Assembly (NCBI GenBank): GCA_041657425.1
Contig: JBBABY010000013.1
Location: forward strand, 1 to 31,317
DNA: 31,317 nt
Origin: an archaeon
GTDB lineage: Archaea > Iainarchaeota > Iainarchaeia > Iainarchaeales > CSSED10-239
Reading direction: 5' to 3'
The notes under the pieces were generated by a model. It was not told the origin of the DNA, did no database searches, and saw only the letters and a program-made list of their open reading frames with translations. This document shows, piece after piece, positions 1 through 31,317 of the stretch; position 1 is the stretch's first letter, and every line of letters begins with the position of its first letter. The translations under genes and the position numbers were made by a program.

Positions 1-1660
1 TTGGTTCAGAAATAATAAGTGGAGTATTTTCAGAATATATTCCTGCAATGGTTTCAATTATTGGAACAACTGTTTCCTGACCAACAAGCATCTTAGCAGT
101 CATCGTATAACTATTTGGTAGAGAATTAGTCTCTAATTTTATATTTGTATTTAATCCATCGTAAGATATAGATGTAAAATCAAATGTTGCACTATAATAT
201 GGGCATTTATGCGCATTTCCATCAAAAAGTGAAAGGTTACAAGTTCCACTTGGAGGGTTATAAAAATATAAATCTTTGTTTGTACTATTGCTTGAATATT
301 GTGCTAAATTACAACGCTCAACATTATTTTGTTCAAATGTAATTCCTGAATGACTAAGTATATCACTACAAATATTTAAATCAGAATCTGATTGAGGATT
401 ATTATATAAATCATTATATTTTTCTGAAATTTTAGTTTCATCAACATGATATATTCCAAAACCACCATAAGTGCTATCACCTCTTAAAAACATACAAGCA
501 TCTAGATTATTTGGATCATTAATATTTCTGTACCTATTCTCAACAATAAAATATTCTTGTTCACTCATATTGTTATTTCTTAAAATAACTGCGTCTGGAT
601 AATCGTTTATGCTTCTTAAACTTATTTCTTTATTGCTGTCTATTGTTAATTCTATTGGATTATGAATCCAATCTAAAAAATATCTTGACCAAACATCAAG
701 ATTAATGGGATTAATAAAACAATACCCCCTATTAGATTCGCTAATAGAATTATTCATCATTGTGACACCATTCATTGGGCCATTACTAGGTGCGCCATTA
801 GTTATTGAATATAAATCAAATAACCCAAGAATATGTGCAAATTCATGAGTTGCAAGTTCTATTGAAAAATTATTAAAATCAGATTGCGTACTTTTTTCTG
901 GGACAAATGCAACATTACCTAAATATTTTCCATCTACTGGATTAGAATTATATTGTTTTAATATTCTAGTTTGTGGCCATATTCCTATTGAAGAATTAAC
1001 GCCAACACCAGGATAAATTAAAATTACGCCATCTAATCTCTCATCATTATTATAATCATACTGTGTAAAATCAACATACGGATCAAATAAATTCATAGAA
1101 TGTATTGCTAATTGAAATTCAGTCGCTGCATTATCAGCATAATATGAAAATGGATGTGGTGCTTCTCTCCAATCATAAACATCAAAAATAATATTTAAAT
1201 CTCCATAGGATTGCTTTGTATAGTATTTGCTTACGCTTATTCCAGAATATCCTGGAATAGAATAATTATTACTGTTAAATGCGTTGTTGATATCTGCCCA
1301 TGAAGTTAAAGATGAGTTCCTATCTGAAAATTTTACTAACAATACTGGTATCTTTATTGTCCCTGATAGTGGTGCAGTTCCCCAAAGATTTGAAACTCCT
1401 GAATTTCTATTTTTTGAGGCATTATTTCTTAATAACTGTTTATATTGTTCTGTGGTTATTCCCATTTCCTTTAGTAATACTTCTTCTGGGGGATAAAATA
1501 CATCTTGATAATTATTTATTCCTAAAGCGTCTATTTCTTCTACTTGTAAAACTTCTAAAGAATTAGACTCTGATTTTTCTGGATTTATAATTTCAGAAGC
1601 TGCAAATATATTTGATAATATTAATATAAAAAATATACCTAAAACAATTCTTGGATTCAT
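1..1660 (-). CDS. Secreted M6-like (immune inhibitor A type) zinc metalloprotease, paralog A; C-terminus runs off the window
   Basis: Absent from the ORF track because no stop lies in the window. Hand translation from ATG 1660 gives MNPRIVLGIFFILILSNIFAAS (Sec-type signal), then ATHEFAHILGLFDLY (HExxH plus LGLxDLY as in peptidase M6), then TAKMLVGQETVVP. I translated the start and bases 298 to 2; the middle is inferred open because the track lists no minus-strand ORF there. Colinear with the 29467..31317 protein. Alternative in-frame ATG at 1678. Confidence 0.8.
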   Translation of the reverse strand, partial: MNPRIVLGIFFILILSNIFAASEIINPEKSESNSLEVLQVEEIDALGINNYQDVFYPPEEVLLKEMGITTEQYKQLLRNNASKNRNSGVSNLWGTAPLSGTIKIPVLLVKFSDRNSSLTSWADINNAFNSNNYSIPGYSGISVSKYYTKQSYGDLNIIFDVYDWREAPHPFSYYADNAATEFQLAIHSMNLFDPYVDFTQYDYNNDERLDGVILIYPGVGVNSSIGIWPQTRILKQYNSNPVDGKYLGNVAFVPEKSTQSDFNNFSIELATHEFAHILGLFDLYSITNGAPSNGPMNGVTMMNNSISESNRGYCFINPINLDVWSRYFLDWIHNPIELTIDSNKEISLRSINDYPDAVILRNNNMSEQEYFIVENRYRNINDPNNLDACMFLRGDSTYGGFGIYHVDETKISEKYNDLYNNPQSDSDLNICSDILSHSGITFEQNNVERCNLAQYSSNSTNKDLYFYNPPSGTCNLSLFDGNAHKCPYYSATFDFTSISYDGLNTNIKLETNSLPNSYTMTAKMLVGQETVVPIIETIAGIYSENTPLIISEP

Positions 1661-1753
1661 AAATAGATTATAAATCATTGGGTTTTTAAATATTAACTCA
1701 ATTGATTTTCTAATTATCTTATCTAAATAAATATTATAAATCTATTCGTTTAT

Positions 1754-1840: not shown

Positions 1841-1869
1841 AAGATGTGTTTTTTTATTATTCACATCTT
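1841..1869 (-). terminator. Hairpin overlapping the stop codon of the 879-aa gene
   Basis: AAGATGTG (1862..1869 on minus) pairs with CACATCTT (1841..1848), an 8-bp stem with a 13-nt A-rich loop, followed by AAAATTTT. Function uncertain. Confidence 0.2.
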
Positions 1870-4507
1870 ATCTAAACTTTAGTGGTTTATAATTTGTTTG
1901 TATTGGACAATATTCAAATATATTTGTCCAAGATGTTACCTTAGAAACATTCCAATTACTTATATTTTGATTAAAACTTGTGGCCCAAAACATAAACGCC
2001 ATATTTGTAACCTTCGAAGTATCCCAATTACTTATATCTTGATTAAAGGCATAAGCCAATTGAAACATACTACTCATGTCTATAACTTTTGAAGTATTAA
2101 AATCTAAAGGTTGATTAAAATTAGATGCCCCCACAAACATAGCAGACATATTCATTACATTTGAAGTGTTAAAATCTAGTGGTTGATTAAAGTCAGTAGC
2201 GTTGCGAAACAGGGCAAACATAGAACTTACCTTTGAAGTATCAAAATTTAAAGGCTGATTAAAACTAGACGCTCCCGCAAACATAGCGTCCATATTAATT
2301 ACATTTGAAGTGTTAAAATCTAATGGTTGATTAAAACTAGAAGCAGAATAAAACATGTTATCCATATAAGTTACATTTGAAGTATCAAAATTTAAAGGCT
2401 GATTAAAACTAGATGCCTCTTCAAACATATTTGACATAGCCGTAACATTTGAAGTATCCCATTCGTTTATTCTTGGAATATCCGTTAATGACCAACATCC
2501 ACTAAACATATAAGACATATCTGTAATTTCACTTGTATCTAAAATATCTGTTGCAGTTATAATTAAATTACTTGCATTAGAAAAATCTCCGTTTTGACCT
2601 AGTATTAAAGATCCCCATTGAGAGATTTCTTCTATCTTTAAAGCATCTAATGTATACTTTAAATCACGATTATAAAATTGGAATCCATCAATCGTTCCTG
2701 TTATTGTTACTGTGTATACTCCTGGAACACTATAAGTATGTACACCCTGTCCTGAATATACTCCGTTGTTTTCAAACAATTCTCCAGAAGTTACATGAGA
2801 GGTTGTTCCGTCTCCCCAATCAACTATAAAATCATAATTTCCACTAGATATTAAAGGCAAAATAATCTGATTATTTTCGCTTGATCCAGATCCATCATAA
2901 TTTGTATCCCATTTAGAAATAAATGATAAAGATGAAGGGACTATTTCTTCTGAATCTGTTCTTAAATATGGATACCCATTATTAATTGTAGAATTTATAT
3001 CCCACACATTTACAAAATCCCAATTATTAAATGTAATTTTTTGTTTCATTTGGGAAGTTGTCTTACCTAATCCAATTACAGAATTTTGCTGATTAGAACT
3101 CTCAGTGTCCCAAAAATTATTAGTAGATGCTATAAGATTTTTACCACCACCATATGTGTGTCCAGCCATATTTAATCCAATAACTAACCCTGTAGAATAA
3201 GTATTTATTACGGTTGAGTTTCCCATAATCCCTATTAATCCTGCAGTTGCATTATCTCCTGTAACGCTTCCTGTTGCATAACTATTATATATATTCCCGC
3301 TTGTTAAATATCCAACTAATCCTCCGACAGTATGAATCCCATTCACATCTCCTGTTGCATAACTTTTTGAAATTATTGAAGTTAAATAAGGACCATTGTT
3401 AAAAGTGCCTATTAATCCCCCAATCCAATCTGCTCCTGTAACTTGACAACTAGAACTAGATCTTGAAATATTTCCATAACCTGCCCCAATTAATCCTCCA
3501 ATTGCAACACCACTTTTTCCTCCAGAAACTATCCCTGTCACATGAACATTATCAATTAAAGAATATTCTACTATTTGTCCAACTAAACCTCCAACAAACA
3601 TATTTCCACTTATTTTTATATCCTCTAAAAATAAATTTTTTATTGTTGCATCCTCTATTGCACTAAATAAACCAACATCACTATTTTCTGGGGTATCTAT
3701 TGTTAAATTTGTAATCCTATGATTATCGCCATCAAAAAAACCAGTAAATCTCTCTACTCCCGATTCTCCTATTGGTATAAAATCTACACCAGATAAATTT
3801 ATATCTGCACCTAAAATATATTCTCCTGATAACACTGTTCTTATCACTTCTAAATCATCTGCATTACAAATTACAAACTTTTCTATATCTTCATTAAAAC
3901 CTGATACACAAATGTCTATTTGCGAACAATCAGAGGGACAAGAATCAATAGTCTCTCCTGCATCACATTCTAAATCAAAATTACATTGATTTACAGAACA
4001 ATCAGAGGGACAAGAATCAATAGTCTCTCCTGCATCACCATCACAATCTCCATTCCCACAAGTAAAAAATCCTACACCACAATCTTCCGAACAATTAAAA
4101 CCTGTTTCTCCAAGGTCTGAATTACAAGTGCCATCTCCACAAAAAGGAACAGGATCTCCATCTCCACCACCGCCAGTTCCATCATCATCTCCACCGGTTC
4201 CTCCACCGCCAGTGCCACCGTTACCACCACTACCACCAGCGCTAGTGCCTCCTCCGGTTGCCATGTTTGTTTGATCTACACCATCATAAATAATTGATTT
4301 ATCAAAACTACTTTCTATGTCGCTTGTCTTATTATTGTCTTGCTTTGACCCTGAAGAACCAGTTATCTTTTCTCTTATACTTCCAAAATATAAAGCTCCA
4401 AAAATTATTACTCCAATAACTAATACACCAAATATTAATAACACTTCTAAAGCTGCTTGTCCTTTCTTTGTTACTTTCTTATGTTTTGTTTTATTCATAA
4501 ATATCAT
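1868..4507 (-). CDS. Large surface adhesin with class III (type IV pilin-like) signal peptide, Gly spacer, CPxDC cysteine modules, GLUG motifs and DUF285/BspA-type repeats
   Basis: 879-aa ORF. N-terminus (MIF)MNKTKHKKVTKKG|QAALEVLLIFGVLVIGVIIFGALYF. Gly-rich run GGGTSAGGSGGNGGTGGGG. Cysteine modules CGDGTCNSDLGETGFNCSEDC and CGNGDCDGDAGETIDSCPSDC. Repeated VGGLVGQ/IGGLIGAG/IGGLIGTF/VGGLVGYL motifs. DWGDGTTSHV..HTYSVPGVYTVTITG domain. At least 8 copies of FNQPL.F.TS.V..M..MF. ATG at 4507 or 4498. Confidence 0.85.
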   Translation of the reverse strand: MIFMNKTKHKKVTKKGQAALEVLLIFGVLVIGVIIFGALYFGSIREKITGSSGSKQDNNKTSDIESSFDKSIIYDGVDQTNMATGGGTSAGGSGGNGGTGGGGTGGDDDGTGGGGDGDPVPFCGDGTCNSDLGETGFNCSEDCGVGFFTCGNGDCDGDAGETIDSCPSDCSVNQCNFDLECDAGETIDSCPSDCSQIDICVSGFNEDIEKFVICNADDLEVIRTVLSGEYILGADINLSGVDFIPIGESGVERFTGFFDGDNHRITNLTIDTPENSDVGLFSAIEDATIKNLFLEDIKISGNMFVGGLVGQIVEYSLIDNVHVTGIVSGGKSGVAIGGLIGAGYGNISRSSSSCQVTGADWIGGLIGTFNNGPYLTSIISKSYATGDVNGIHTVGGLVGYLTSGNIYNSYATGSVTGDNATAGLIGIMGNSTVINTYSTGLVIGLNMAGHTYGGGKNLIASTNNFWDTESSNQQNSVIGLGKTTSQMKQKITFNNWDFVNVWDINSTINNGYPYLRTDSEEIVPSSLSFISKWDTNYDGSGSSENNQIILPLISSGNYDFIVDWGDGTTSHVTSGELFENNGVYSGQGVHTYSVPGVYTVTITGTIDGFQFYNRDLKYTLDALKIEEISQWGSLILGQNGDFSNASNLIITATDILDTSEITDMSYMFSGCWSLTDIPRINEWDTSNVTAMSNMFEEASSFNQPLNFDTSNVTYMDNMFYSASSFNQPLDFNTSNVINMDAMFAGASSFNQPLNFDTSKVSSMFALFRNATDFNQPLDFNTSNVMNMSAMFVGASNFNQPLDFNTSKVIDMSSMFQLAYAFNQDISNWDTSKVTNMAFMFWATSFNQNISNWNVSKVTSWTNIFEYCPIQTNYKPLKFR
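1900..2540 (-). repeat. Coding tandem array of about 72-nt (24-aa) DUF285-type units with a 144-nt higher-order repeat
   Basis: tttgaagtatcaaaatttaaaggctgattaaaactaga occurs identically starting at 2232 and 2376 (144 nt apart). Protein repeats are SSFNQPL(N/D)F(D/N)TS(N/K)V..M..MF. Array boundaries are approximate. Confidence 0.8.
3924..4038 (-). repeat. 43-bp perfect direct repeat (2 copies, 72-nt period) inside the cysteine-module region
   Basis: gaacaatcagagggacaagaatcaatagtctctcctgcatcac occurs at 3924..3966 and again at 3996..4038. It encodes the duplicated DAGETIDSCPSDCS peptide. Confidence 0.9.
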
Positions 4508-7838: not shown

Positions 7839-7889
7839 TCGCGTTCAAACGCGAAAACTACTGCGCGCGAGCCTAGCGAAACAGGCTCA
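7839..7889 (-). other. GC-rich structured element immediately 3' of tRNA-Leu (candidate trailer/processing element or small RNA)
   Basis: By hand count, 28 of 49 nt (about 57% GC) across 7841..7889, in a window that is very AT-rich by eye. Hairpins GAGCCT-N8-AGGCTC (7869..7888) and TCGCG-N6-CGCGA (7839..7854), plus GCGCGC at 7863..7868. Confidence 0.3.
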
Positions 7890-7971
7890 TGCTGGGGACA
7901 GGATTCGGACCTGCGAAGCACTAAGCACTGGATCTTAAGTCCAGCCCCTTTGACCGCTCGGGAACCCCAGC
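7890..7971 (-). tRNA. tRNA-Leu (anticodon UAA), no encoded CCA
   Basis: Minus strand GCTGGGGTTCCCGAGCGGTCAAAGGGGCTGGACTTAAGATCCAGTGCTTAGTGCTTCGCAGGTCCGAATCCTGTCCCCAGCA. It has a 7-bp acceptor stem GCUGGGG/CCCCAGC, an anticodon arm CUGGA-CUUAAGA-UCCAG, a long variable arm (class II) and a T arm GCAGG-UCCGAAU-CCUGU. Confidence 0.9.
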
Positions 7972-7982
7972 AAAAGATTAAA

Positions 7983-10339: not shown

Positions 10340-10498
10340 TTATTCTATTGGGAAAACATGAAGTATCCCTATTTTTTCTTCCTTTTCTTTATTCTTATAG
10401 TATATAAACTTCGTATCCATTTTATCAATTAATATCTTCTTTCCAAAGTTTCTACCTTGCATGATTATGCATTTTTTTCCTTTTGTTAATAAACCCAT
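10340..10498 (-). CDS. rpl14e: Small KOW-type protein, probable 50S ribosomal protein eL14 (L14e), 52 aa
   Basis: Below the track size cutoff. Hand translation gives MGLLTKGKKCIIMQGRNFGKKILIDKMDTKFIYYKNKEKEEKIGILHVFPIE, and G..C....GR..GKK..I.....F fits the L14e KOW core. Canonical position after rpl34e. Confidence 0.6.
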   Translation of the reverse strand: MGLLTKGKKCIIMQGRNFGKKILIDKMDTKFIYYKNKEKEEKIGILHVFPIE

Positions 10499-10504
10499 AA
10501 TTAA

Positions 10505-10846: not shown

Positions 10847-10863
10847 ATAACTTTTTCACCGTT

Positions 10864-11340
10864 TTATTTCTTCTTATAATCTGCTGGCGTATAATCAGCA
10901 TATTTTTTTTCAAATATTTTATCATAAATATTATTTGTAATTAATGACAATATAAATGTCATTATGAAAAATGTCCAGAAACCAAAAAGATCAAACTTCC
11001 ATGGTATTGCTGTATTTATATACATTATTGTGCCATAAAATTTATTTACTACATACAAAAATGGAATAGCTAAGATCATTAATGGAATCATTGTTTTAAA
11101 CATTCCTTTAAACTGTCTTCCCATTAAATCAAATGCCTCTTTTTGTTTTTCTTGAACTTCTGGAAATTTATTTTCCTTCATTAATACTTTCATTTCATCT
11201 TGTATTTCTTTATTTCTTCTTTTTATAAAGAAATATTCTTTTGGATCTGAAAAAAGATGTTGTACTAATCTGTTAATAACTACAAATAATACTGCAATTA
11301 TTATCAAATCTACCCATTGATTTATTATTGGTACAATCAT
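10864..11340 (-). CDS. DUF106 family membrane protein (archaeal YidC/Oxa1/EMC3-like, Mj0480-type)
   Basis: 158 aa with TM1, a charged coiled segment (KRRNKEIQDEMKVLMKENKFPEVQEKQKEAFDLMGRQFK), then TM2 and TM3. It sits directly after secY, as in many archaea. Confidence 0.7.
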   Translation of the reverse strand: MIVPIINQWVDLIIIAVLFVVINRLVQHLFSDPKEYFFIKRRNKEIQDEMKVLMKENKFPEVQEKQKEAFDLMGRQFKGMFKTMIPLMILAIPFLYVVNKFYGTIMYINTAIPWKFDLFGFWTFFIMTFILSLITNNIYDKIFEKKYADYTPADYKKK

Positions 11341-11346
11341 CTAACA

Positions 11347-12681
11347 TCACTTATTTAACATTTGTTTCAAGAAATTTCCTGATTCAAATAACTGTTCTTT
11401 TGCTAATTGTTCATAGAATCTATAAACAATACCTACTGTTAATAATATTCCAGTTCCTGTTCCTATTGCGCCTGTTAAATCAGCAACAACTGCTAAAATA
11501 CCAACTGCAAGAGAACCTAAGATTACTATTGTTGGAATATATCTATCAAGTACTGTAACTAAAACTCTTTCATCTCTTCTAAATCCTGGTATTGACATTC
11601 CTGATCTTTGAAGTTGCCCAGCAACATTAGCTGTTCCTTGACCACCCACTTCTACCCAGAATTTTCCAAAGATTACACAAACTAAAACAAATAATATTGC
11701 ATAACCAAATGCAGCTAAAGCCATCCCCCAAGTTGCTCCTCCAAAAATTGCTGTTTGAAGTAAACCGTTTGGTGGATTTAGGAAATTTGCAATTGGTGTT
11801 AAAATATTTCCTGCTGCTGTTCCTTTAGCAAGGCTTCCAAAGAGAGCAAAGTTTGCAAACAATGTTCCTGTTAAGATTACTGGCATATTTGAAACATACA
11901 TTAACTTAACTGGAAAATTTGCACCCATTCCACTTCTTCCAACAGTTAATGGAATATTCACATGAATACTTTCCACATAAACAACTGCAAAGAAAACTAA
12001 TAATGTAAATAATATTGGAAGTAACACATATGTTAACAACTCAATTGTTGCACCAGTCATTATGTAATTAAATCCTTGAAAGATTAATCCACCAGGATAA
12101 TTACTTGCAACAATTGGAAGACTAAATATTCTCCAAATAATTGCTTGACAAACTCCTGCTGCAATGAATAGCCCAATTCCTGAACCAATTCCATATTTAC
12201 TTACTACTTCATCTAGATAAATAACTATTATTGCACCTATTACAATCTGTAATACTACTAACCAAAGCAGTCCTGGCATCGGAACTAACATACCAAATGC
12301 AGAATAGACAAATGCTTCTACTATTGCAAGAACAATTGCTAAAAGTTTTTGACAACCTGTAAATTTTGCTCTTTCTTCTGGTTTTGAGAAATCAAAATTA
12401 ATAATTTTGACTCCTGCTAATAACTGTAAAATAATTGATGCTAAAACTATTGGACCAATTCCTAATGTAATTAATGTTCCAATATCACTTGCAAGTATCA
12501 TTTGATACATGTTTATATTTGCGGTTTGACTTTGGTCAAGACCGATTAAAGTAACTGTTCCTAATATAAAATAAATAACAAGAACAACTAATGTCCAAAG
12601 TAATTTTTGTCTTACATTTGGAACTTTACTTGGATCTTTGACTGTTGGCATTAGCCCTAAGATATTATCTAAGAAACTCAT
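11347..12681 (-). CDS. secY: Preprotein translocase subunit SecY
   Basis: 444-aa polytopic membrane protein after rpl15, with an ATGA overlap onto the rpl15 stop. The multi-TM pattern and position are canonical. Confidence 0.93.
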   Translation of the reverse strand: MSFLDNILGLMPTVKDPSKVPNVRQKLLWTLVVLVIYFILGTVTLIGLDQSQTANINMYQMILASDIGTLITLGIGPIVLASIILQLLAGVKIINFDFSKPEERAKFTGCQKLLAIVLAIVEAFVYSAFGMLVPMPGLLWLVVLQIVIGAIIVIYLDEVVSKYGIGSGIGLFIAAGVCQAIIWRIFSLPIVASNYPGGLIFQGFNYIMTGATIELLTYVLLPILFTLLVFFAVVYVESIHVNIPLTVGRSGMGANFPVKLMYVSNMPVILTGTLFANFALFGSLAKGTAAGNILTPIANFLNPPNGLLQTAIFGGATWGMALAAFGYAILFVLVCVIFGKFWVEVGGQGTANVAGQLQRSGMSIPGFRRDERVLVTVLDRYIPTIVILGSLAVGILAVVADLTGAIGTGTGILLTVGIVYRFYEQLAKEQLFESGNFLKQMLNK

Positions 12682-13046
12682 TGAATCTTGCCCCCTGCTT
12701 TTTCAATTTTCTCTTTAGCAATTTCTGTTGCTTTTGCATTCTTAAATATCACTGCTTTATTTATAGAACCTTTACCAAGGATCTTATCAAAACCTAATTC
12801 CTTTAAATCAATTTCTTTTCTATCTTTTATTATTTCAGAAAGTGACTCTAAAGTAATTGTAGTTTCCTTTTCCTTAGCCATTAAAGTTACTCTTTGTCCG
12901 AAATCAACATAATATTTTGAGAACTTATGTTTGTGTGAACCTGCTCTTCCCTTTCCACCAGTACACCCTGAACCTCTAGCGTTCTTTGTGTTTCCGTGAC
13001 CGTGAGTTCTTTTTCCTCTTAATCTATCAACTTTTGTTCTTCCCAT
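12678..13046 (-). CDS. rpl15: 50S ribosomal protein uL15
   Basis: RLRGKRTHGHGNTKNARGSGCTGGKGRAGSHKHKF is the uL15 N-terminal signature. Confidence 0.92.
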   Translation of the reverse strand: MGRTKVDRLRGKRTHGHGNTKNARGSGCTGGKGRAGSHKHKFSKYYVDFGQRVTLMAKEKETTITLESLSEIIKDRKEIDLKELGFDKILGKGSINKAVIFKNAKATEIAKEKIEKAGGKIQ

Positions 13047-13067
13047 ATTATTTCACAAATTTATAAT

Positions 13068-13532
13068 TTATATCATCTTTATAAGTAATTTATTTATTTG
13101 ATCAGCTCTGTAACCTAATACTCCGCCTTCCTTAAATGTTTTCTTAATTCCTTTTCTATCATAACCTTTTGTTGGAGGCTTTAATCTAAATACTGGTTTA
13201 ATTCCCAAATCATTTAATTTTGCTTTTCCTGAAAGTAAATCTGCAATAACTTTATCTGCTTTCTTTTCGTCTTTATAATGTTCTTTGAATTTTACTAATT
13301 TTCCTTTCTCATTATAAACAAAACCTCTTTTTACAAGCATTTTCTTTAAAGTTTCATTTGTGATTTCTCCATATGTCACCATATTTCTTACTTTATGAAG
13401 CATTCCTTTTATTACTGTATTTTCTGGATAAATTACACAATGATTAGATCTTGTTAGATTTAATAACTTCATTGTTGTTTCAATATCTATATTTACTTTT
13501 GCTGGACTTCTTACTCTAATTATTGCAAACAT
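13068..13532 (-). CDS. rpl30: 50S ribosomal protein uL30
   Basis: MFAIIRVRSPAKVNIDIETTMKLLNLTRSNHCVI..GMLHKVRNMVTYGE matches archaeal L30/L7e. Confidence 0.92.
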   Translation of the reverse strand: MFAIIRVRSPAKVNIDIETTMKLLNLTRSNHCVIYPENTVIKGMLHKVRNMVTYGEITNETLKKMLVKRGFVYNEKGKLVKFKEHYKDEKKADKVIADLLSGKAKLNDLGIKPVFRLKPPTKGYDRKGIKKTFKEGGVLGYRADQINKLLIKMI

Positions 13533-13546
13533 ATTTAATTCCTTTT

Positions 13547-14239
13547 TTATTCTTTATTTTCAACTTCTTCTTTTTCTTTATATCTTAAATCTGAAATATT
13601 ATATAAAGCATCAATTGTTGCTCTAACAAAGTTAAGTTTTGTGTCTGTTGCACCTCTAGTGTTTGACCACAAATCTTTAATTCCAACTAATTCAAATAAT
13701 GGCTTAATGGTGTCACTTACTGCAAGACCAATTCCGTTTGGTGCAGGAATTAATTCAACTCTTAATGATGCACATTTTCCCATAACCTTGTATGGCACTG
13801 AATGTTTCTTAGAACAATTACATTCCCAAGATCCACAACCTCTTCTTACTGGAACAATATTTAATTTTGCATCTTTAATTGCTTTTTGTTGAGCAACTAT
13901 TCTTTCAATATTCTTTCCGGTTCCTACTCCAATGTGTCCATTACCGTCTCCAATTATTACTGAAACTCTAAAAGAAAAGTGCCTACCTGCTCTTGTAACT
14001 CTTGTTGTTTTCTTAACATCAATAACTTTCATTTGAAGATCAGGAATAAAACAATCAACAATTTCTGATTCCATTATTTTTTTTCCAAGTTTAAAAACAT
14101 CATCTAATGAATCCAGTTCTCCTGCTTTAACTTTTCTACCAAGTTCTGTTTTTGGAGTCCATGAATCTTTATCAAATGGTTTTTCTTTTTCCTTTTCTCT
14201 TCCTCTTCCTTTATTAGTTCTTTCTCTAAATGCACACAT
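13547..14239 (-). CDS. rps5: 30S ribosomal protein uS5
   Basis: TRAGRHFSFRVSVIIGDGNGHIGVGTGKNIERIVAQQKAIKDAK matches uS5. Confidence 0.93.
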   Translation of the reverse strand: MCAFRERTNKGRGREKEKEKPFDKDSWTPKTELGRKVKAGELDSLDDVFKLGKKIMESEIVDCFIPDLQMKVIDVKKTTRVTRAGRHFSFRVSVIIGDGNGHIGVGTGKNIERIVAQQKAIKDAKLNIVPVRRGCGSWECNCSKKHSVPYKVMGKCASLRVELIPAPNGIGLAVSDTIKPLFELVGIKDLWSNTRGATDTKLNFVRATIDALYNISDLRYKEKEEVENKE

Positions 14240-23477: not shown

Positions 23478-24464
23478 TTACTTATTAATATAGCTAATAT
23501 CTGTTAATTCTAACTTTAATTTTTGTGGTCTTGTTGTGTGTCTTAATACTACAACTCTATTTGTTGTTCCTGGAGTACTTCCAGCAACTAGAACGTATTT
23601 ATTTTTTAATACGCCGTAATTCTTTAATCCACCTTTTCTATTTACTTTTGTAATATCAGAATCAATCATTAATAATTTTTTATTAGTTTCTGTTCTATTA
23701 TGAAAACCATATTGTCCTGCTCTTGCTACAGTAAACATAATTGTAGAAGGATTCCAAGGATTAATACTTCCAACATGTCTTTGAGATTTATTTGCTTTTC
23801 TTCTTTGAATCTTTACATTAAATCTTTCAACAACACCTGTTGTTCCATAACCTGTGGTTATGCTTTTAACATCTAAGTAATCATCTGCTTTAAATACTTC
23901 ATCAACTGAGATTACTTTATTAAATTTTTCTTTTAAATAAGCTATTTGTTCATCGTATGTTCCAGATAAAGGGATTTCTACGATAACTGGTTTTTTCTGT
24001 CCAGATCCTGTTGCCTTATAGTTAACCATTGCAATTAATGTTAAAGAATCAGCTTTATCTTTATTTTTTAAAACATCTTCTAGAACTGGCGCTATTTTTT
24101 GTTTCTTTCCTGTTACTCTCTTTTTAAAATCAGTATCTTGGTGAGTAAATTCAAATGTTGCTGCTTTTCCTGCATTAACATTATATCCTTTATAGAATCT
24201 TGCTCCGACAACCTTAAGATCAGGAGTTTCAATAATTGTTACTGGAACTGAAATTTCTTGACCATAAGAAGAAGCGCCTTTTTTTGCATTCTTGCCCATT
24301 ACAAAAGTACTTCCTGCTTTTATAGCAAAAAAACAAAGCGGTTTACATCCTTTAATATCTTTTGCGACATTACCAAAAGAAGTAAACTTAGGAATAATAC
24401 TAGCTGCTCTAACTCTTGGATAGAAAGCCATAGAACCTGCGTGAGGTTTATTATCATGCGTCAT
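23478..24464 (-). CDS. rpl3: 50S ribosomal protein uL3 (first gene of the superoperon)
   Basis: KPHAGSMAFYPRVRAASIIP...GYGTTGVVERFNVKIQRRKANKSQRHVGSINPWNP matches archaeal uL3. No GGTGA upstream, unlike the internal genes. Confidence 0.93.
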   Translation of the reverse strand: MTHDNKPHAGSMAFYPRVRAASIIPKFTSFGNVAKDIKGCKPLCFFAIKAGSTFVMGKNAKKGASSYGQEISVPVTIIETPDLKVVGARFYKGYNVNAGKAATFEFTHQDTDFKKRVTGKKQKIAPVLEDVLKNKDKADSLTLIAMVNYKATGSGQKKPVIVEIPLSGTYDEQIAYLKEKFNKVISVDEVFKADDYLDVKSITTGYGTTGVVERFNVKIQRRKANKSQRHVGSINPWNPSTIMFTVARAGQYGFHNRTETNKKLLMIDSDITKVNRKGGLKNYGVLKNKYVLVAGSTPGTTNRVVVLRHTTRPQKLKLELTDISYINK

Positions 24465-24783
24465 AATTCATCTTATTTTGTAAATTTTATTTAATTATTT
24501 AAATTTAAATCCTGCAGAAGTAGAAGAAATCAAGAGATAATCTCTAGAATAATCTTCTGCATTTAAATGTTGGTTAATGGCAGTTATCCATTTATTTTGG
24601 TACCAACAAGCAGTCTACAGAAAGCTTTTTATTGCCAAAAATCAAACAAAAGAACTTTGTTTGCTTAAATAAGGTCAATTTAAGGTCTTTTTTCTTTAAC
24701 CTGTCAACAGCCTTAGCCGTTTAACAAATTAAAAATATAATATATAGAATAATTATAGATGCAAAAGGTTTATAAAAGGAAAG

Positions 24784-24813
24784 GAAAAAAAGACCTCTAT
24801 CTAATAGAGATCT
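24784..24813 (-). terminator. Stem-loop plus oligo-T directly after, and overlapping, the stop of the 658-aa gene
   Basis: Minus strand AGATCTCTAT-TAG-ATAGAGGTCT (10-bp stem with one G-U pair; 24791..24813), followed by a T run of 6-7 and CCTTTCCTTTT. Confidence 0.45.
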
Positions 24814-26788
24814 AACTTTGGAGGGTACATCCGCTAATCAAAAATGTCTTTGAAAATCGTGATCCTGTTTTTATATCATAGGTTGTCATATTTATTTTTA
24901 TATTTGTTGGGGCCGTGCCTTTTGTAAAATCGCTAGTTATCCAAATTGGTGTTGGTGTCTGGCGATAGTTATAATTACCAGGAATACAACCAGTAGTTGG
25001 ATCTGATTCTAATCCTACATTTGCACACCAGTAATAATATCCTGCAGATTGTGTTGAAAACCAGGCATTATATTGCACATGGATATTATAAGTAGTAGAA
25101 GTAAAAGGGACAATTCCTGGCACAACTGTGTAAGTGCAAGCTTGCTGAGAAATATCTATATCCGATGAATTATTATAGAAGTTCATAATTGTTGCAGCCG
25201 CTCTAGCTTTATTAGAACTAGGATTAGCTAAATTCGTATATATTACCAAAATTCCTTTCTTCGTAGTCATTTTTTTAATATGTATCCTTTTTGTTAATGA
25301 ACCACTGCTATCTGTAGTTACTGTAAAATTATTACTTAAAGTTTCTCCAATTGTAGCTCCTACTATTGCTGATGACAAATCAGAACAATCAGACCAACCT
25401 GAAGGATCTGAATAACCTAGATATTCGTGCTCAGAATCGCTATAACCCATAGTACATTCTTTAATTGTAACTTTATAATTTTGATTTGGACCTCCAGAAC
25501 TTAATCGAAGATCTATTGGCACATATTTACCTATACCAATGTGTCTTCTATCTGGTCTGTAAGAACTATTTTGAGTGTAATCAGGAAATGGTGCATAATC
25601 AAATACTTTATAGCCAACTTCTGGTGGATATGTTGAAGAATATTCTGCTCCTGTTTTTCTCTCCCAAGTTGAATCAAATGTCTGATATGTAAGTAAATTT
25701 CTAAAAGCAAATGCTCCGAAATTATTAGATGCATAAATTGGCACATAATAAGTGTTACCATTACCATCATAAATCATATAGTATTTTCCAGTTACGGCAG
25801 TAAGTCCCGAAGCAGAATTATCTGTTTCTAAACTACCTATTCTATTTCTTAAATCTGAGCTTAAATGATCTATTTCGATACTTTCATTACTAATATCTAA
25901 ATATTCATTTGTAACATTAGTTATATTAAACTGCAAATTATCAAGATAAGTCATAACCTCTTCAGAAAAATGATTTAAATTAATTGCTCCAATTGCTATA
26001 TTATCTCCAATTATTGCGCCAGACTTTAATTTTATTTTTCCTGCGGTTTGTGAATATTGAGTTCCATTAATATAACATCCTGCATTTGGACAGGCAGTAA
26101 ATTGAGTAGGCAAAAAATCACTTAAAACAAGGCCTGATCCCCCTGTACCATTATTGATAGGTGTCCATACATAACTTCCTGACGACACATCAGAAGAAGA
26201 ACATTGTTTTAAAACACCGTCTACTACCATTATGTCCCCCTTACTATTAGAATTACAAATCCCCTGCGTACCTTCAATTTTTGACGTTAATTTATCAGCG
26301 CCAATTACATTTTCTGTAACATTTGGATTTGGCAAAACTATTGTTGTTTCAAGTAAATATGAAGGAGATGTATCTTGCTTTATTTTAACTTTAAAGTCTA
26401 ATGTAGTTGTGGTAGTTATTGGTGCAATAAAACCAGTAATTATTCCGTTCTTTAATCCACTTTTAATTAACTCTGCAGTTAAATTACTATTACTATAGAC
26501 TATCTGATTATTAGGAGAATAAATTTCTAAAGTACAGCCACTTGGAGCAACAGCAAAAAATAATTTTTCAAATAAATTACCTTGAGATAAATTGCCTCCA
26601 ATACCAGTATCATTTGTTGATGTTCCTGAACTCCAAGTTCCTGTTCCGCCAGAACAAGCCGCGTTTAACGCAGGAGTTATTACTAAATCACCAGTTATAC
26701 GATACTGTTTTGTTATAGATCCTGCAAAGATTAAATTTAAAGACAATAGTCCAATTACTAAAATTAATAATGTTTTTGAAATTTTCAT
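24812..26788 (-). CDS. Secreted protein of unknown function (658 aa, Sec-type signal peptide)
   Basis: MKISKTLLILVIGLLSLNLIFAG|S is a signal peptide. GGTGA lies 8 nt upstream of the ATG. The protein is Ser/Thr/Asn/Gly-rich with many Cys, and I recognise no family signature. Confidence 0.75.
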   Translation of the reverse strand: MKISKTLLILVIGLLSLNLIFAGSITKQYRITGDLVITPALNAACSGGTGTWSSGTSTNDTGIGGNLSQGNLFEKLFFAVAPSGCTLEIYSPNNQIVYSNSNLTAELIKSGLKNGIITGFIAPITTTTTLDFKVKIKQDTSPSYLLETTIVLPNPNVTENVIGADKLTSKIEGTQGICNSNSKGDIMVVDGVLKQCSSSDVSSGSYVWTPINNGTGGSGLVLSDFLPTQFTACPNAGCYINGTQYSQTAGKIKLKSGAIIGDNIAIGAINLNHFSEEVMTYLDNLQFNITNVTNEYLDISNESIEIDHLSSDLRNRIGSLETDNSASGLTAVTGKYYMIYDGNGNTYYVPIYASNNFGAFAFRNLLTYQTFDSTWERKTGAEYSSTYPPEVGYKVFDYAPFPDYTQNSSYRPDRRHIGIGKYVPIDLRLSSGGPNQNYKVTIKECTMGYSDSEHEYLGYSDPSGWSDCSDLSSAIVGATIGETLSNNFTVTTDSSGSLTKRIHIKKMTTKKGILVIYTNLANPSSNKARAAATIMNFYNNSSDIDISQQACTYTVVPGIVPFTSTTYNIHVQYNAWFSTQSAGYYYWCANVGLESDPTTGCIPGNYNYRQTPTPIWITSDFTKGTAPTNIKINMTTYDIKTGSRFSKTFLISGCTLQS

Positions 26789-26856
26789 TTTTTATTCACC
26801 GTTTTATTTTTATTCTCCTATATTTTTATATAAATTTGTTTTTTAAATATATGTTT

Positions 26857-28407
26857 TTATTCTGTAACATATACTGTTAATGTTCCATAAGGATTAGTAG
26901 TAGTTCCTGATGATTGATCAGCATATACTTTTAATAGGCCATAACCATTATTTTGCCAATAATCTGTATTATATCCTAATCCCCCCATTGGTAATGCACA
27001 AGCTTGAAGAACTCCATAACCTGATGCAAAACTATTACAATTACCTGATTTAAATAATAAATCATAACCTACATAAAAAAGTGTATATTTTCCATTAAAT
27101 ATTGCATTTACTGGTTTTAGATTATCTTGTGATTGATACATTGCTTTTGGACAAGTTGTAGGAAGTAATTTATAATACACATTTGTTCCATTTACAATAT
27201 CATAACCGGAAATTGCTCTAGTCAAATCAATATTACAATTAATACTGTCTGTAAAAGTAATAGTGGGATTTGTTAATAAATTTTGAGTCATACTTGCGAT
27301 TTTTATATTAAATTCTTCTCCAACATATTGAGTTGGGGGATTTATAGTTAAATAAGCCACAGTTGGATCAGATTTATAAATATTAATCATTTTCTCATCT
27401 TTGCTTTGAATAGAAATTCCATCTATTACTTTTGTGGCATATACTATTACTTTCTGTTCTCCTATAATTTCTGGCAAAGTTAATGTAGCTAAATCAAAAG
27501 AATAATTACAAGACTTATCTACAGATACAAATCTATCTCCAATATGCCATTCACAAGAAATTCCGGTAGTTCCAAAATCAAGTTCTGTAGCAGTTAATTG
27601 GATACTTTGATTATTAAAATATGCTTGTCCTTCAATTGGGCTAGTGATTGAAATATTAAAAACTGGAGTTGGTGGTGGAGGAATTAACCCAGAAGTGATT
27701 ATTTTAGTAATTGCCCCAGATAATGTTGGAGTTGTTAATTCATTTGGGGTAACTCCCGAAAATGAAAATGTATATGTTCCGGGAGTTTTACAAGTAAAAT
27801 CAAATGTATTCTCAATAGATCCTGCTGGAATCGTTTGATTTAATCTTCCTAAATTAGTAAATGTATTATTATATACTCCATTATAAGAACAATTTGAAGT
27901 TGGAGACCCTGTAGAATCAGAGATATCTAATTTGCCAACATTTCCTAAATCATAACTTGAATTCGCAACTTTTACTTTTATTCCAAAACTCGCATCTATT
28001 GCCGAATTTCCTGTTGGATCTAATGTTAATTGTAAAGTTGCAAAATCTGGTATTGTATCAGGGCAGTCTATTGGACAAGATCCATAATTTTCCGAAGGAG
28101 GTAAACAAAGACCATCTCCACAGCTACAATCATCTGGACAATTGCCATTATCTTCTCCTAATGAAGTTTCACAATTACCATTTCTATTACAAATTACTGA
28201 TGGAATGTTTGGAACATTTGGATGACCTGTTCCATCACCTAACTGATCTTCAAAACCATCAAGGACGCTTGCAACTTTTGAACTATCAGAAATATTTTTA
28301 TTTATACTACTAATATAATATGCTCCAAAAACTATTGAACCAATTACAACTACCCCAAGAATTGCTAAAACTTCAATAGAAACTTGTCCTTTTTTTCCTG
28401 ATAACAT
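26857..28407 (-). CDS. Surface protein with class III (type IV pilin-like) signal peptide and CPxDC cysteine modules (516 aa)
   Basis: MLSGKKG|QVSIEVLAILGVVVIGSIVFGAYY fits the QxSxExxxL-type class III signal. It is followed by CNRNGNCETSLGEDNGNCPDDCSCGDGLCLPPSENYGSCPIDC, a PPPP linker and beta-rich Ig-like segments. AGGTG upstream. Confidence 0.8.
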   Translation of the reverse strand: MLSGKKGQVSIEVLAILGVVVIGSIVFGAYYISSINKNISDSSKVASVLDGFEDQLGDGTGHPNVPNIPSVICNRNGNCETSLGEDNGNCPDDCSCGDGLCLPPSENYGSCPIDCPDTIPDFATLQLTLDPTGNSAIDASFGIKVKVANSSYDLGNVGKLDISDSTGSPTSNCSYNGVYNNTFTNLGRLNQTIPAGSIENTFDFTCKTPGTYTFSFSGVTPNELTTPTLSGAITKIITSGLIPPPPTPVFNISITSPIEGQAYFNNQSIQLTATELDFGTTGISCEWHIGDRFVSVDKSCNYSFDLATLTLPEIIGEQKVIVYATKVIDGISIQSKDEKMINIYKSDPTVAYLTINPPTQYVGEEFNIKIASMTQNLLTNPTITFTDSINCNIDLTRAISGYDIVNGTNVYYKLLPTTCPKAMYQSQDNLKPVNAIFNGKYTLFYVGYDLLFKSGNCNSFASGYGVLQACALPMGGLGYNTDYWQNNGYGLLKVYADQSSGTTTNPYGTLTVYVTE

Positions 28408-28474
28408 CTTTGTTGCACCTTTTAATATAATCTATAACTAAAATAAATGATAAAAGTATTTATAAATGGTATTG

Positions 28475-29503
28475 TTATTTATTCATTTCTTGAGTTGGAA
28501 TTAATTTCTTTTCTGCCTTAACTTTATTATTATTTTTTCTTGTAATTGTATAATTTTCAGTCATAAGCTCACTAGATTCCCAAATTATTGTTGCTTCTAA
28601 TAAATCTGATAGACTCTTTACACTAGCTGTACCTCTATTATCTAATGGACTTCCAAATGTAGGACCTACATAAAGATATGCTTTTGCTTTTAATGTTTTT
28701 GATGAACTTATTGTTATTGGACTGGTGTATGTTTGACTTGTTCTTAAATTTGGAATACTCCCATCAAGAGTATACTTTATTATTGCACCTTCTGTTTCAG
28801 TCATTAACTCCACAGTTATTGGTTGAGAATAATTTCCTCCATCAATGCTTGCTTCTGGTGGATATACTGCTGGACTATTTGTAACAGTAACTGTATAATT
28901 TCGTGTGCCAGTTACTGAACTTACTGTATAGTTTACTGAATTAATAAAACTTTGAGAGATCCCACTTTCTGGATAAACAGTACACCCCTCTTCAACTATT
29001 ATTATTGGAGTTAAACCACTTCTATTTACTCCGTATGGAATGATTATATTTATTATATTGTAATCATTATTTATTACTGTTTGACTTTCTACTTCTTGAA
29101 AAGTAAAACTTAATATTAAGTTTTGTGGAGCGTTACCTGTAGTATAATTGTAAGTTACTACTTGGCTTGGTGCATATCCTGTTTTGTATGCAATTAAATT
29201 TAAAGTAAAATTATGATCTATCATTATTGGGGCGGCATATATTGTTGAAAACTCATTTGGAGTTGTTCCATTTATTGTGTATCTAATTGTTGCGCCTGCA
29301 GTTGTAGTATACGCTTCAGTTATAGTTCCATAATTATAATATCCTGATTGAAGAGTGGATATTGGATTGTTTACAACTAATACTTGATAATTATAAGTTG
29401 CTGTTGCACTTGGCTCGTAACCTGTCTTGTAAGCTTTTGCTTTAATATTTGTTGTTTGAAAAATATTTATTGCTGTTGAATAAATGCTTGATGATTCAGT
29501 TGG
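28475..29503 (-). CDS. C-terminal remainder of the M6-like protease paralog B, in the -1 frame (CHB_HEX_C-like repeats); not an independent gene
   Basis: The frame is open from 29503 to the stop at 28475. Hand translation gives PTESSSIYSTAINIFQTTNIKAKAYKTGYEPSATATYNY..AGATIRYTINGTTPNEFSTIYAAPIMIDHNF... This continues the repeat interrupted at 29504. The track's ATG at 29224 is an internal Met. Confidence 0.7.
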   Translation of the reverse strand, partial: PTESSSIYSTAINIFQTTNIKAKAYKTGYEPSATATYNYQVLVVNNPISTLQSGYYNYGTITEAYTTTAGATIRYTINGTTPNEFSTIYAAPIMIDHNFTLNLIAYKTGYAPSQVVTYNYTTGNAPQNLILSFTFQEVESQTVINNDYNIINIIIPYGVNRSGLTPIIIVEEGCTVYPESGISQSFINSVNYTVSSVTGTRNYTVTVTNSPAVYPPEASIDGGNYSQPITVELMTETEGAIIKYTLDGSIPNLRTSQTYTSPITISSSKTLKAKAYLYVGPTFGSPLDNRGTASVKSLSDLLEATIIWESSELMTENYTITRKNNNKVKAEKKLIPTQEMNK

Positions 29504-31317
29504 CTACTGTTATCCAGAGTATATCTGATTGTTGCACCAGATGTTGCTGTGCTTAAAATTACTTGACTATTATAATCTATTACTCCAGAAACCTGATTTG
29601 CTGTTGGAGTTGCAACTGTTCCAGTAACTGTATAAACACTTGTCATTACATCACTAACATAAAAATTATTTTTTTTAGCAATTGCTTTTATTGTTGTTAC
29701 TGCATTAGCAGGAGCAGTTATTGGGGTTGTATAAATGGATGATGAAGTTGTTGGAGTGCTTCCATTTGTAGTATAATAAATTGTTGCGCCAGGAGTTGAT
29801 GTACTTAAAGTTATTTGAGTTGGAACATAATACACTTGAGCCGAAGATGGGCTAGTTACTGGAGTTGCCGTTTCTTCACCAACAAGCATCTTTGCAGTCA
29901 TTATTGATTGATTAGATGAAGAAATTGCTGTAAACCTTATCTTTGGATTTTGAACACCACTATACGTACTAGTTGTTCTATCCAAAATCCCGTATGGTGC
30001 ACACAAATATTGGTTTTCATCGAAATATTTAAATGAATCACAACTATTTATTATGTCATCAAAATATAAATCATTTGGGAAAATTAAAATACTTGTAGAA
30101 TTAATTGTATTTTCTTCATATAATACTCCTGGCCAAGAAACTGTATCATTAAAATAATTATTATCTCTATCCCAGTTTACCCAATTGTTTGGATAGTCAA
30201 ATTCAATTTTGTTTTCATCAACATGATAGATTGCAAATCCACCATAAGTGGTTGGAGCATTAATAAACATACAATTGTCTAAATTACTAGAATCGCTATG
30301 ATTTCTATAACGATTTTCAATTATAAAATATTCTCTTGCACCCATATTGCTATTTCTTAAAATCACTGCGTCTGGATAATCGTTTATACTTCTTAGACTT
30401 ATTTCTTTATTGCTGTCTGTTGTTAATTCTATTGGAGCAACCCAACCTAAAAAATATCTAGACCAAACATCAAGATTAATTGGCTTATTTAAACAATATA
30501 CTTCTTCAAACATCATCATTGACATTCCTGACAATGGACCATTATCTATCTGCCCTTGTGGGCCAATAGCATACAAATCTGGAAGACCAAGAACGTGTGC
30601 AAACTCATGAGTAGTTACAGAGATTTCAAATTGATTTGATTGTCTTACTCCCTTTTCTGGAACTAGTGCTACATTCCCTAGATATTTCCCGTCTACTATA
30701 TTTTGAGTATATTGTTTTAATATTCTAGTGTGTGGCCAAACAGCAGTTGGTGCAATTCCCCCAACACCTGGATAAATTATAACAAATCCATCTATTCTTC
30801 CATCATTGTCATTATCATATTGACTAAAATTAACATTACTGCCGCCAGTAGTGGAATTAAATAAATTTATAGAATCTAATACTAATTGAAAATTTCTAGA
30901 ACTGTTTAAACTATACCAAGAATAGGTTTGCGGTGCAGTTCGCCAATCGTAAACATCATAAATAATATTTAAATCTCCATAGGATTGCTTTGTATAATAT
31001 TTGCTTACACTTATTCCTTGGCCATTTAAATAATTAGAACTATTAAATGATTCATTTATTGCGCTTTGTGTTTGAGTAGACAGATTGTCTGTAAATTGAA
31101 CTAGAAGAACCGGGATATGTATTGTCCCTGTTAATGGAGCAGTTCCCCAAATGTTTGTTACACTTGAATTACGATTTATTGGAGCTTTCCTTTTTAATAA
31201 TTGTTTATAAGTTCTTAAATTTAAACCTTGCTTTCTTAATTCGCTTTCTGGAGGATATAAAACATCATTATATTTCTCTAGAACAGTCATTGCATTATCT
31301 TCTGAACCCTTTGTTAT
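29467..31317 (-). CDS. M6-like zinc metalloprotease paralog B. The N-terminus runs off the window, and the reading frame is broken at about 29503 by a 1-nt frameshift
   Basis: TTHEFAHVLGLPDLY (HExxH), colinear with paralog A. The frame stays open upstream of the track's Met (ITKGSEDNA-MTVLEKY), and no signal peptide is in the window. C-terminal GATIYYTTNGSTPTTSSSIYTTPI repeats resemble chitobiase/hexosaminidase C-terminal domains. Confidence 0.8.
   Translation of the reverse strand: MTKGSEDNAMTVLEKYNDVLYPPESELRKQGLNLRTYKQLLKRKAPINRNSSVTNIWGTAPLTGTIHIPVLLVQFTDNLSTQTQSAINESFNSSNYLNGQGISVSKYYTKQSYGDLNIIYDVYDWRTAPQTYSWYSLNSSRNFQLVLDSINLFNSTTGGSNVNFSQYDNDNDGRIDGFVIIYPGVGGIAPTAVWPHTRILKQYTQNIVDGKYLGNVALVPEKGVRQSNQFEISVTTHEFAHVLGLPDLYAIGPQGQIDNGPLSGMSMMMFEEVYCLNKPINLDVWSRYFLGWVAPIELTTDSNKEISLRSINDYPDAVILRNSNMGAREYFIIENRYRNHSDSSNLDNCMFINAPTTYGGFAIYHVDENKIEFDYPNNWVNWDRDNNYFNDTVSWPGVLYEENTINSTSILIFPNDLYFDDIINSCDSFKYFDENQYLCAPYGILDRTTSTYSGVQNPKIRFTAISSSNQSIMTAKMLVGEETATPVTSPSSAQVYYVPTQITLSTSTPGATIYYTTNGSTPTTSSSIYTTPITAPANAVTTIKAIAKKNNFYVSDVMTSVYTVTGTVATPTANQVSGVIDYNSQVILSTATSGATIRYTLDNSSQLNHQAFIQQQ

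Follow-up and report, generated by a model that had tools for sequence, protein, structure and literature searches.

A modular, probably pilin-like surface protein with a class III signal and immunoglobulin-like domains in a DPANN-type archaeon

The 31,317-nucleotide (nt) archaeal contig JBBABY010000013.1 (assembly GCA_041657425.1, Iainarchaeota), the whole of which is referred to here as the window, encodes a 516 amino acid (aa) protein that is best explained as a modular surface protein of a DPANN-type archaeon, pilin-like and processed by a prepilin peptidase. We regard this explanation as probable when taken as a whole; we are more confident of the part in which a class III (prepilin-type) signal precedes an extracellular rod of immunoglobulin (Ig)-like domains, and less confident of the parts that place the protein in a filament and make it an adhesin. 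It is an uncharacterised member of a large mix-and-match family, and not a new kind of system. Judging from its full-length homologues (28-43% identity), which have kept their synteny in five other genomes, the gene is real and constrained. A public collection holds an identical protein as ‘hypothetical protein WCX82_04280 [archaeon]’. The parts of the gene are listed below, with the confidence (predicted local distance difference test, pLDDT) of an AlphaFold2 (AF2) model made with an 18-sequence alignment; the mean pLDDT of the model is 71.9, with domain maxima of up to 94.

26857..28407, minus strand: complete open reading frame (ORF) of 516 aa with an ATG start; stop codon at 26857..26859
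28387..28407, minus strand: leader peptide MLSGKKG, residues 1-7, with K-K-G before the predicted prepilin-peptidase cleavage site
28309..28386, minus strand: predicted mature N-terminus QVSIEVLAILGVVVIGSIVFGAYYIS, residues 8-33, with Q+1, S+3 and E+5 ahead of the hydrophobic alpha-1 helix
28192..28308, minus strand: polar linker, residues 34-72; AF2 pLDDT below 50 for residues 41-69; 33% mean pairwise identity in the family
28126..28191, minus strand: 4-Cys module 1, CNRNGNCETSLGEDNGNCPDDC, residues 73-94
28063..28122, minus strand: 4-Cys module 2, CGDGLCLPPSENYGSCPIDC, residues 96-115
27688..28041, minus strand: D1, residues 123-240; predicted beta-sandwich with the pair C173/C206; AF2 pLDDT about 60-90
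27670..27681, minus strand: PPPP hinge, residues 243-246, replaced by a Cys-rich insert in some orthologues
27373..27663, minus strand: D2, residues 249-345; Big_7/X1-like Ig domain with the invariant pair C285/C300; AF2 pLDDT 81-94
27088..27366, minus strand: D3, residues 348-440; family-specific beta domain with the invariant pair C391/C419; AF2 pLDDT 84-94
26860..27087, minus strand: D4, residues 441-516; family-specific C-terminal domain with the invariant pair C457/C470; AF2 confidence low from about residue 450

The protein starts MLSGKKG/QVSIEVLAILGVVVIGSIVFGAYY (the slash marks the predicted cleavage site). Around this site it has K-2, G-1, Q+1, S+3 and E+5, and a stretch of approximately 25 hydrophobic residues comes next. 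An earlier reading of the gene, made from the sequence only, had described this start as an almost exact QxSxExxxL class III motif, and so it is: Q, S and E agree, and the only departure is at +9, where the protein has I (QVSIEVLAI) and the published QXSXEXXXL motif has L. Against the Pfam model of such signals (PF04021, Class_IIIsignal) the full-length protein scores 14.7 bits and its N-terminus by itself 19.8 bits (E 7.5e-4), in a match that takes in all 27 model positions, and the same model matches 39 of 46 related N-termini at E <= 0.1 (best E 1e-7). Among 143 relatives, which were chosen for Q at +1 and E at +5 so that these two positions are forced, conservation at unforced positions is high (K-2 94%, G/A-1 99%, S+3 83%, L+7 87%, G+16 92% and Y+24 83%). 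The AF2 model has a helix over residues 11-55, and inspection of the sequence revealed neither a second hydrophobic segment nor a C-terminal sorting signal or anchor. The N-terminal segment is 59% identical to that of an 879-aa protein encoded elsewhere in the window, and 44-47% identical to those of 57-59 aa mini-pilins found in pilus loci. In Methanococcus, proteins of the DUF361/QXSXEXXXL type have Q at +1 and are cleaved by a dedicated prepilin peptidase, EppA (PMC2910488). Because of the family-level evidence and the genomic context of relatives, the prediction that the 516-aa protein carries a class III signal of this type is supported.

That genomic context comes from a profile of the N-termini, which retrieved small proteins (53-62 aa) made up almost entirely of the signal segment, some of them named ‘class III signal peptide-containing protein’ by NCBI. 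Two of these, P0174 and P0181 (57 and 59 aa, one of them from Candidatus Diapherotrites), start KKG/QVSLEVL and are encoded on six long contigs of archaea with approximately 30% GC, always directly after a T2SSE gene and two T2SSF genes. On all six contigs they are followed on the 3' side by further Class_IIIsignal proteins and then by a Peptidase_A24/Arc_PepC gene, giving the following arrangement.

L008-L013, around 6200-13900 on each contig: compact type IV filament locus with T2SSE, two T2SSF, a helix-only pilin of 57-59 aa, between two and four longer pilins, and Peptidase_A24/Arc_PepC

This is the ‘system 1’ (Epd-like) layout, which has been reported for methanogens and DPANN archaea (bioRxiv 10.64898/2026.04.22.720090), and in relatives this type of N-terminus is linked to pilus machinery and to a prepilin peptidase. 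Two N-terminal subtypes occur in these loci, KKG/QVSLEVL and KKG/QGALEYL, and the 516-aa protein fits the first.

The same N-terminus is found on proteins of very different length and composition. With HMMER, 1.84 billion representatives were searched exhaustively; there were 225 matches, and 152 representatives were retrieved. The motif lies within the first 45 residues in 131 of these 152 cluster representatives (54-2123 aa), and the 516-aa protein, like 131 of the 152, begins with a short, charged leader whose last two residues are [KR]-[GA], with Q as the +1 residue. Pfam searches with 78 longer proteins that have this N-terminus identified GLUG (25 proteins), CHB_HEX_C_1/Fn3_assoc (21), M26_N (4), DUF285 (3), Big_7 (3) and RCC1 propellers (2) as well as InlB B-repeats, Fib_succ_major, Laminin_G_3 and PKD, in a sample that is biased by the mode of retrieval. 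The modular principle is clear, with one N-terminus joined to many different distal domains. This bears out the suggestion, first made from two proteins of the window, of modular surface proteins with exchangeable heads: the 131 representatives share the N-terminus and differ in their distal domains.

The second protein on which that suggestion was based is the following.

1868..4507, minus strand: 879-aa protein with a KKG/QAALEVL signal, a Gly-rich linker, three 4-Cys modules (nt 3926..4141), then GLUG/M26_N and DUF285/PARCEL repeats

The 4-Cys modules have the pattern C-x4-5-C-x9-10-C-x3-C, typically CG[DN]GxC...GE...C[PS]xDC, and each presumably holds two disulfides. The two CPxDC-type modules that had been picked out by eye in the 516-aa protein are both present, and they align by their Cys columns with the three of the 879-aa protein (residues 123-143, 150-170 and 175-194). 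Aligning the two N-termini, which had been proposed as a check, gives a BLASTP match with E = 5e-12 that covers residues 7-115 only. The two proteins had been said to share signal, linker and stalk; signal and modules do align, but linker and stalk are not a fixed unit, as the linker of the 879-aa protein is much longer and Gly-rich, its modules number three against two, and orthologues of the 516-aa protein have 0, 1, 2 or 3 modules (0, 4, 8, 10 or 12 stalk cysteines). The 879-aa protein is a paralogue in N-terminal architecture only. At the DNA level similarity of the two genes is confined to the signal and helix region (nt 12-129, 71% over 118 nt), and a recent exchange of Cys modules between them is ruled out, since elsewhere their DNA shows no similarity. 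Two NCBIfam models were considered for the 879-aa protein and set aside, namely that for haloarchaeal TafF, of the Tat-dependent fimbriae (16.6 bits against a cut-off of 420), and that for PamR of CPR (candidate phyla radiation) bacteria (25.9 against 300), both scores being far below threshold.

Modules start within the first 140 residues in 46 of the 112 signal-bearing representatives of at least 140 aa, with a median start at residue 74. Because their number varies from none to three among orthologues, the stalk is better seen as a spacer of variable length than as a fixed part of the architecture. The AF2 model has low confidence in this region. No match at E <= 1 to residues 73-115 was found in Pfam or NCBIfam, including the named Cys-repeat families (for example DUF4215 / myxococcal Cys-rich repeat), and a PDB sequence search found no solved structural relative of the module; the sole match of the Cys-module array in the PDB, a designed zinc-finger consensus (E 0.016), was judged to be an artefact of composition. 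The exhaustive search also returned P0145, a protein of 1255 aa with 109 cysteines that has 16-22 copies of the module in the form CGDGxCxxxLGExxxxCPxDC and lacks a pilin signal. Its module copies are interspersed with PPC-like domains and a Lamin-tail (LTD) domain, it is bacterial-looking by composition, and with at least 16 module copies it too gives no Cys-repeat match in Pfam or NCBIfam. Going by these sequences, the 4-Cys module is not restricted to archaea and is widespread, while being unnamed in Pfam and NCBIfam.

The part of the protein beyond the stalk had been characterised as beta-rich, with a PPPP linker and many cysteines, and this description is accurate: PPPP is at residues 243-246, the AF2 model has beta strands, and there are 16 cysteines in the protein, eight in the modules and eight forming four pairs in the head. 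Three of the four head pairs are invariant, and C206 of the remaining pair is Cys in 14 of 16 rows of the alignment. It had also been stated that this region has no family signature, which is true for curated libraries, although homologue searches do find relatives, comprising three full-length homologues in a word-indexed search and about 16 clusters (at 50% identity) in the exhaustive search. The view that the head is an orphan is not upheld, since those 16 or so clusters share the whole of it and it resolves into three predicted Ig-like sandwiches and a small domain at the C-terminus. Within the ectodomain D4 is conserved best, with a mean pairwise identity of 43% compared with 26% for D1. 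A hidden Markov model (HMM) of D1 matches 53 representatives outside the family, 52 of which have a pilin-type signal; the D1 signature is ...NCSYNG...FxCxxxGxYxF, and some proteins have 2-4 copies of the domain. D2 is a generic Ig of Big_7-like kind. HMMs of D3 and D4 match only the family itself and one 403-aa protein, P0021. By this measure, the family-specific head is only the last 170 or so residues (D3-D4).

The likely fold of D1-D3 is indicated by profile and model comparisons. Pfam Big_7 (PF17957) matches the 516-aa protein with 11.4 bits and E 0.52, below its gathering score of 24.1 bits, and matches 4 of 18 family members, with a best E of 6.7e-4. Against the PDB, the family profile finds 9kvu_A, ‘bacterial immunoglobulin domain B1’ (E 0.0015), and the X1 modules of CbhA (E 0.03). 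Structure prediction followed by Foldseek, as had been proposed for the head, yields a fold class, but the matches in PDB and BFVD are only generic Ig-like arrays, among them cell-adhesion receptors, cadherins, the adhesin FdeC, the S-layer (surface layer) protein SbsB and phage tail proteins. TM-scores are 0.25 or below both for a poor first model and for the better one, because the relative positions of the domains are undefined in the model, and the matches indicate generic multi-Ig proteins with no specific function. At the level of fold class, the models show D1-D3 as Ig-like beta-sandwiches.

Directly downstream of the gene lies another that accompanies it in other genomes.

24812..26788, minus strand: partner gene, 658 aa; Sec-like N-terminal signal, conserved N-terminal domain of approximately 165 aa, hypervariable remainder

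In each of five other genomes (L001/L003, L002, L004, L005 and L006) a homologue of the 516-aa protein is followed by a partner of 623-691 aa and then by rpL3-L4-L23-L2. The locus search was run with a 4-sequence alignment, and the breadth of the partner family is that seen in six loci. Conservation of the partner is limited to the first 165 or so residues, the C-terminal two-thirds being unalignable between genomes. In two genomes the partner ends in Pretoxin-HINT (PT-HINT, PF07591; E 1e-11 and 5e-10; L005:2484-4559 and L006:3200-5170), which is trailed by only 20-35 aa; this domain is absent from the copy in the window and from three others. On the 5' side of the homologue, where sequence is available, lies the CHB_HEX_C-rich end of an M6 metalloprotease gene. 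The conserved C-terminus of the 516-aa protein and the conserved N-terminus of its partner suggest that the two may dock. The archaeal pair of L004 (CAZDEU010000191.1) is on a 4.5-kb contig binned as ‘uncultured Bacteroidales bacterium’, a label that is probably a binning error.

Taken together, a plausible course of events would be as follows. The preprotein would enter the membrane through its hydrophobic N-terminal segment, and an A24-family prepilin peptidase of the EppA/Arc_PepC type would cut after KKG, giving a mature protein that starts at Q8 (QVSIE..., with Glu at +5). The helix, like that of the 57-59 aa helix-only (Flp/Epd-like) pilins, may then bring the protein into or onto a filament, or hold it in the membrane; in a filament, it would most plausibly be a tip or a sparse minor subunit. 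The flexible linker and two small double-disulfide modules would form a stalk of variable length, from which the single-disulfide Ig-like domains D1-D3 and the conserved D4 would project outward and bind; the most likely targets are a host cell, a surface or the partner encoded alongside. Cleavage, disulfides, incorporation into a filament, anchoring in a pilus and a function in adhesion or docking are inferences.

Several observations weigh against this explanation. The PF04021 scores are under the gathering score of 23.7 bits in both runs. Within the window, which is the whole contig, there is no gene for a prepilin peptidase, an ATPase or a platform protein; the machinery is documented in relatives only, which may not carry the 516-aa family themselves, and the gene adjoins a ribosomal-protein operon, not pilus genes. 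In the AF2 model no globular pilin domain is packed on the helix, so that a complete pilin module (alpha-1 plus packed globular domain) is lacking, the helix of residues 11-55 being followed by the low-confidence linker and the Cys modules. D1 as the missing globular domain is not supported, as its HMM finds nothing in the pilins of the machinery loci, with whose globular parts D1 shares no detectable similarity. N-glycosylation sequons are not enriched in the protein (9 observed against 7.7 +/- 2.4 expected). Finally, an extension of 480 residues would have to be accommodated in a filament, and nothing in the analyses points to a ligand.

The main rival, which partly overlaps with the pilin-like explanation, is that the protein is not a filament subunit at all, but serves as the stalk in a surface layer or docking complex of two components. 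The (possibly processed) helix would be the membrane anchor, and D3-D4 would hold the conserved N-terminal domain of the partner, which would be an exposed canopy, adhesin or effector, much as SlaB carries SlaA. We consider this possible though doubtful. It would account for the retention of the gene pair in six genomes beside the rpL3 operon, for the location of the gene outside a pilus locus, and for the complementary conservation of the two proteins, D4 being conserved above D1 on one side and only the first 165 or so residues on the other. The PT-HINT domains on two partner homologues and the presence of SbsB among the Foldseek matches also speak for it. On the other hand, the N-terminus is clearly of pilin type, which is unneeded for a simple anchor, and covariation analysis would need more than six gene pairs. 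In codon adaptation the pair does not stand out, with values of 0.686 and 0.589 compared with 0.731 +/- 0.040 for ribosomal genes, and as a proxy for the expression of the pair it is uninformative. The docking stalk is moreover compatible with prepilin processing, which is why the two explanations overlap.

A more far-reaching proposal, and to our mind a somewhat less probable one, is that family and partner together are a two-part surface device of one DPANN lineage, in which a rod of Ig domains anchored by a pilin helix would use its invariant D3-D4 tip to dock a polymorphic secreted protein by the conserved N-terminal domain of the latter. Such a device might be an archaeal counterpart of the contact-dependent display of polymorphic effectors or adhesins, with which an episymbiont would engage its hosts. 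On this view the C-terminal half of the partner is swapped between genomes, sometimes with a self-cleaving pretoxin-HINT end, and the pair is kept beside the ribosomal-protein operon.

It is improbable that the protein is an ordinary Sec-dependent membrane or secreted protein, with a signal anchor or a signal-peptidase-I peptide, whose likeness to pilins reflects ancestry without present function. The sub-threshold PF04021 score and the lack of machinery in the window would fit such a protein, as would the weak matches of the N-termini profile to unrelated transmembrane helices of the PDB, for example in a monofunctional glycosyltransferase (E 0.03). A generic anchor, however, needs none of the positions K-2, G/A-1, S+3, L+7, G+16 and Y+24 that are conserved in the 143 motif-selected relatives, and the same motif occurs in the 57-59 aa segment-only proteins inside pilus loci with an A24 peptidase. 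The adjacent partner and an M6 protease paralogue of the window carry visibly different, ordinary Sec-like signals. It is the conserved processing-site pattern and the mini-pilin relatives that make a plain Sec anchor unlikely. A substrate-binding or enzymatic protein on a bindosome-like system, comparable to the Sulfolobus sugar-binding proteins with class III signals, is very improbable, because, even though archaea are known to have functional non-pilin proteins with class III signals (PMC2910488; bioRxiv 10.64898/2026.04.22.720090) and neighbouring genes encode M6 metalloproteases, scans of Pfam and NCBIfam found no solute-binding or catalytic domain signature and the modelled folds are only Ig-like sandwiches.

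The 516-aa protein is encoded on a contig of approximately 30% GC in which all genes are on the minus strand. The middle of the contig is taken up by a long archaeal ribosomal-protein/SecY operon (Pfam L3, L4 and SecY, along with a TrmB regulator), with surface-protein genes on both flanks. The sole tRNA of the window, tRNA-Leu(TAA) at 7889..7972 on the minus strand, is embedded in this operon. Over 24300..29600, Rfam gave no RNA family and Tandem Repeats Finder gave only a short AT-rich intergenic repeat, and the plus-strand ORFs inside the gene were dismissed as spurious, with unsupported, low-complexity translations. Two possible upstream elements were noted.

28457..28466, minus strand: archaeal TATA-like box TTTATAAATA, approximately 50 nt upstream of the ATG, by inspection only
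28416..28419, minus strand: GGTG, 8 nt upstream of the ATG, by inspection only

The evidence for both is weak, as they were found by eye in DNA of approximately 70% A+T. The two genes with pilin signals lie at the two ends of the ribosomal superoperon, and each adjoins a gene for an M6 protease; these neighbours are as follows.

28475..31290, minus strand: M6 metalloprotease ORF of 607 aa and ORF of 249 aa, upstream of the gene for the 516-aa protein, together one frameshifted gene
2..1678, minus strand: another M6-like metalloprotease gene, paralogous to the first and with an ordinary Sec-like signal; it follows immediately downstream of the gene for the 879-aa protein and runs off the start of the window

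The frameshift of the first lies near 29503..29506, where a contiguous homologue (L006:18-1601) follows frame -1 to 29506 and frame -3 from 29503; the split gene is either a pseudogene or an assembly error, and the upstream ORF runs past the end of the window.

DPANN archaea are mostly uncultured, and many are attached to other cells. To our knowledge, the molecules by which they attach are almost unknown. In one lineage, a single pilin-type N-terminus is a universal carrier for dozens of surface modules. The combination of K-[GA]/Q-x-S-x-E and a hydrophobic helix then gives a sequence rule by which candidate surface and host-interaction proteins can be listed, and the conserved gene pair is a candidate attachment complex. 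Three building blocks, the 4-Cys stalk module, the signal-tied D1 and the D3-D4 unit, are unnamed and absent from curated libraries. The libraries searched contain no description of the 516-aa family, of the stalk module, of D1 or of the gene pair. The kind of system to which they belong is already established, both as class III signals on non-pilin proteins of archaea and as modular pilins in bacteria.

Of known proteins, the DUF361/QXSXEXXXL proteins of Methanococcus maripaludis (Epd pilins, substrates of EppA; PF04021) resemble the 516-aa protein in the short basic K-G leader, in Q+1, S+3 and E+5, and in the hydrophobic helix. The loci of the relatives have the ‘system 1’ layout, with a single ATPase gene, a pair of platform genes, several pilins and an A24 peptidase dedicated to them. 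The 516-aa protein differs from them in scoring under the Pfam threshold, in being long rather than short, in lying outside a pilus locus and in having I at +9. In the helix-only pilins of the Flp/Tad and EpdE types the pilin part is likewise the N-terminal helix, and the 57-59 aa relatives are exactly such proteins, whereas here some 480 residues, made up of the stalk and the Ig-like domains, extend the helix. SlaB and SlaA of Sulfolobales form the stalk-and-canopy pair of the S-layer, SlaB having a Sec signal and being anchored by a C-terminal helix. By analogy, a presumably membrane-anchored beta-sandwich rod is here too encoded beside a larger and more variable outer protein, but the N-terminus is of pilin type, and no sequence similarity or specific fold similarity to SlaB or SlaA was found.

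Class III signals on functional proteins of archaea that are not pilins are known from the substrate-binding proteins of the Sulfolobus bindosome (PMC2910488; bioRxiv 10.64898/2026.04.22.720090), in which a pilin-type signal likewise displays a non-pilin protein at the cell surface. The 516-aa protein lacks a solute-binding domain, and belongs to another lineage and another pilus system. Modular type IV pilins are established in bacteria (PMC8179133), where PilB and PilC of Streptococcus sanguinis and CofB of enterotoxigenic Escherichia coli (ETEC) likewise join a pilin-type N-terminus to grafted non-pilin modules. In PilB the graft is preceded by a full globular pilin module, compared with a recognisable helix only in the 516-aa protein, which further differs from the bacterial proteins in the disulfide mini-modules of its linker, in its archaeal origin and in having a DUF361 signal instead of IPR012902. 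The combination described by Raynaud et al. 2021, a class III signal with domains that are not specific to pilus biology, is found in the 516-aa protein in its predicted Big_7-like D2 and Ig-like D1-D3, and as in the bacterial modular pilins many architectures are built on one carrier module, with the binding of ligands at the filament as the role to be expected.

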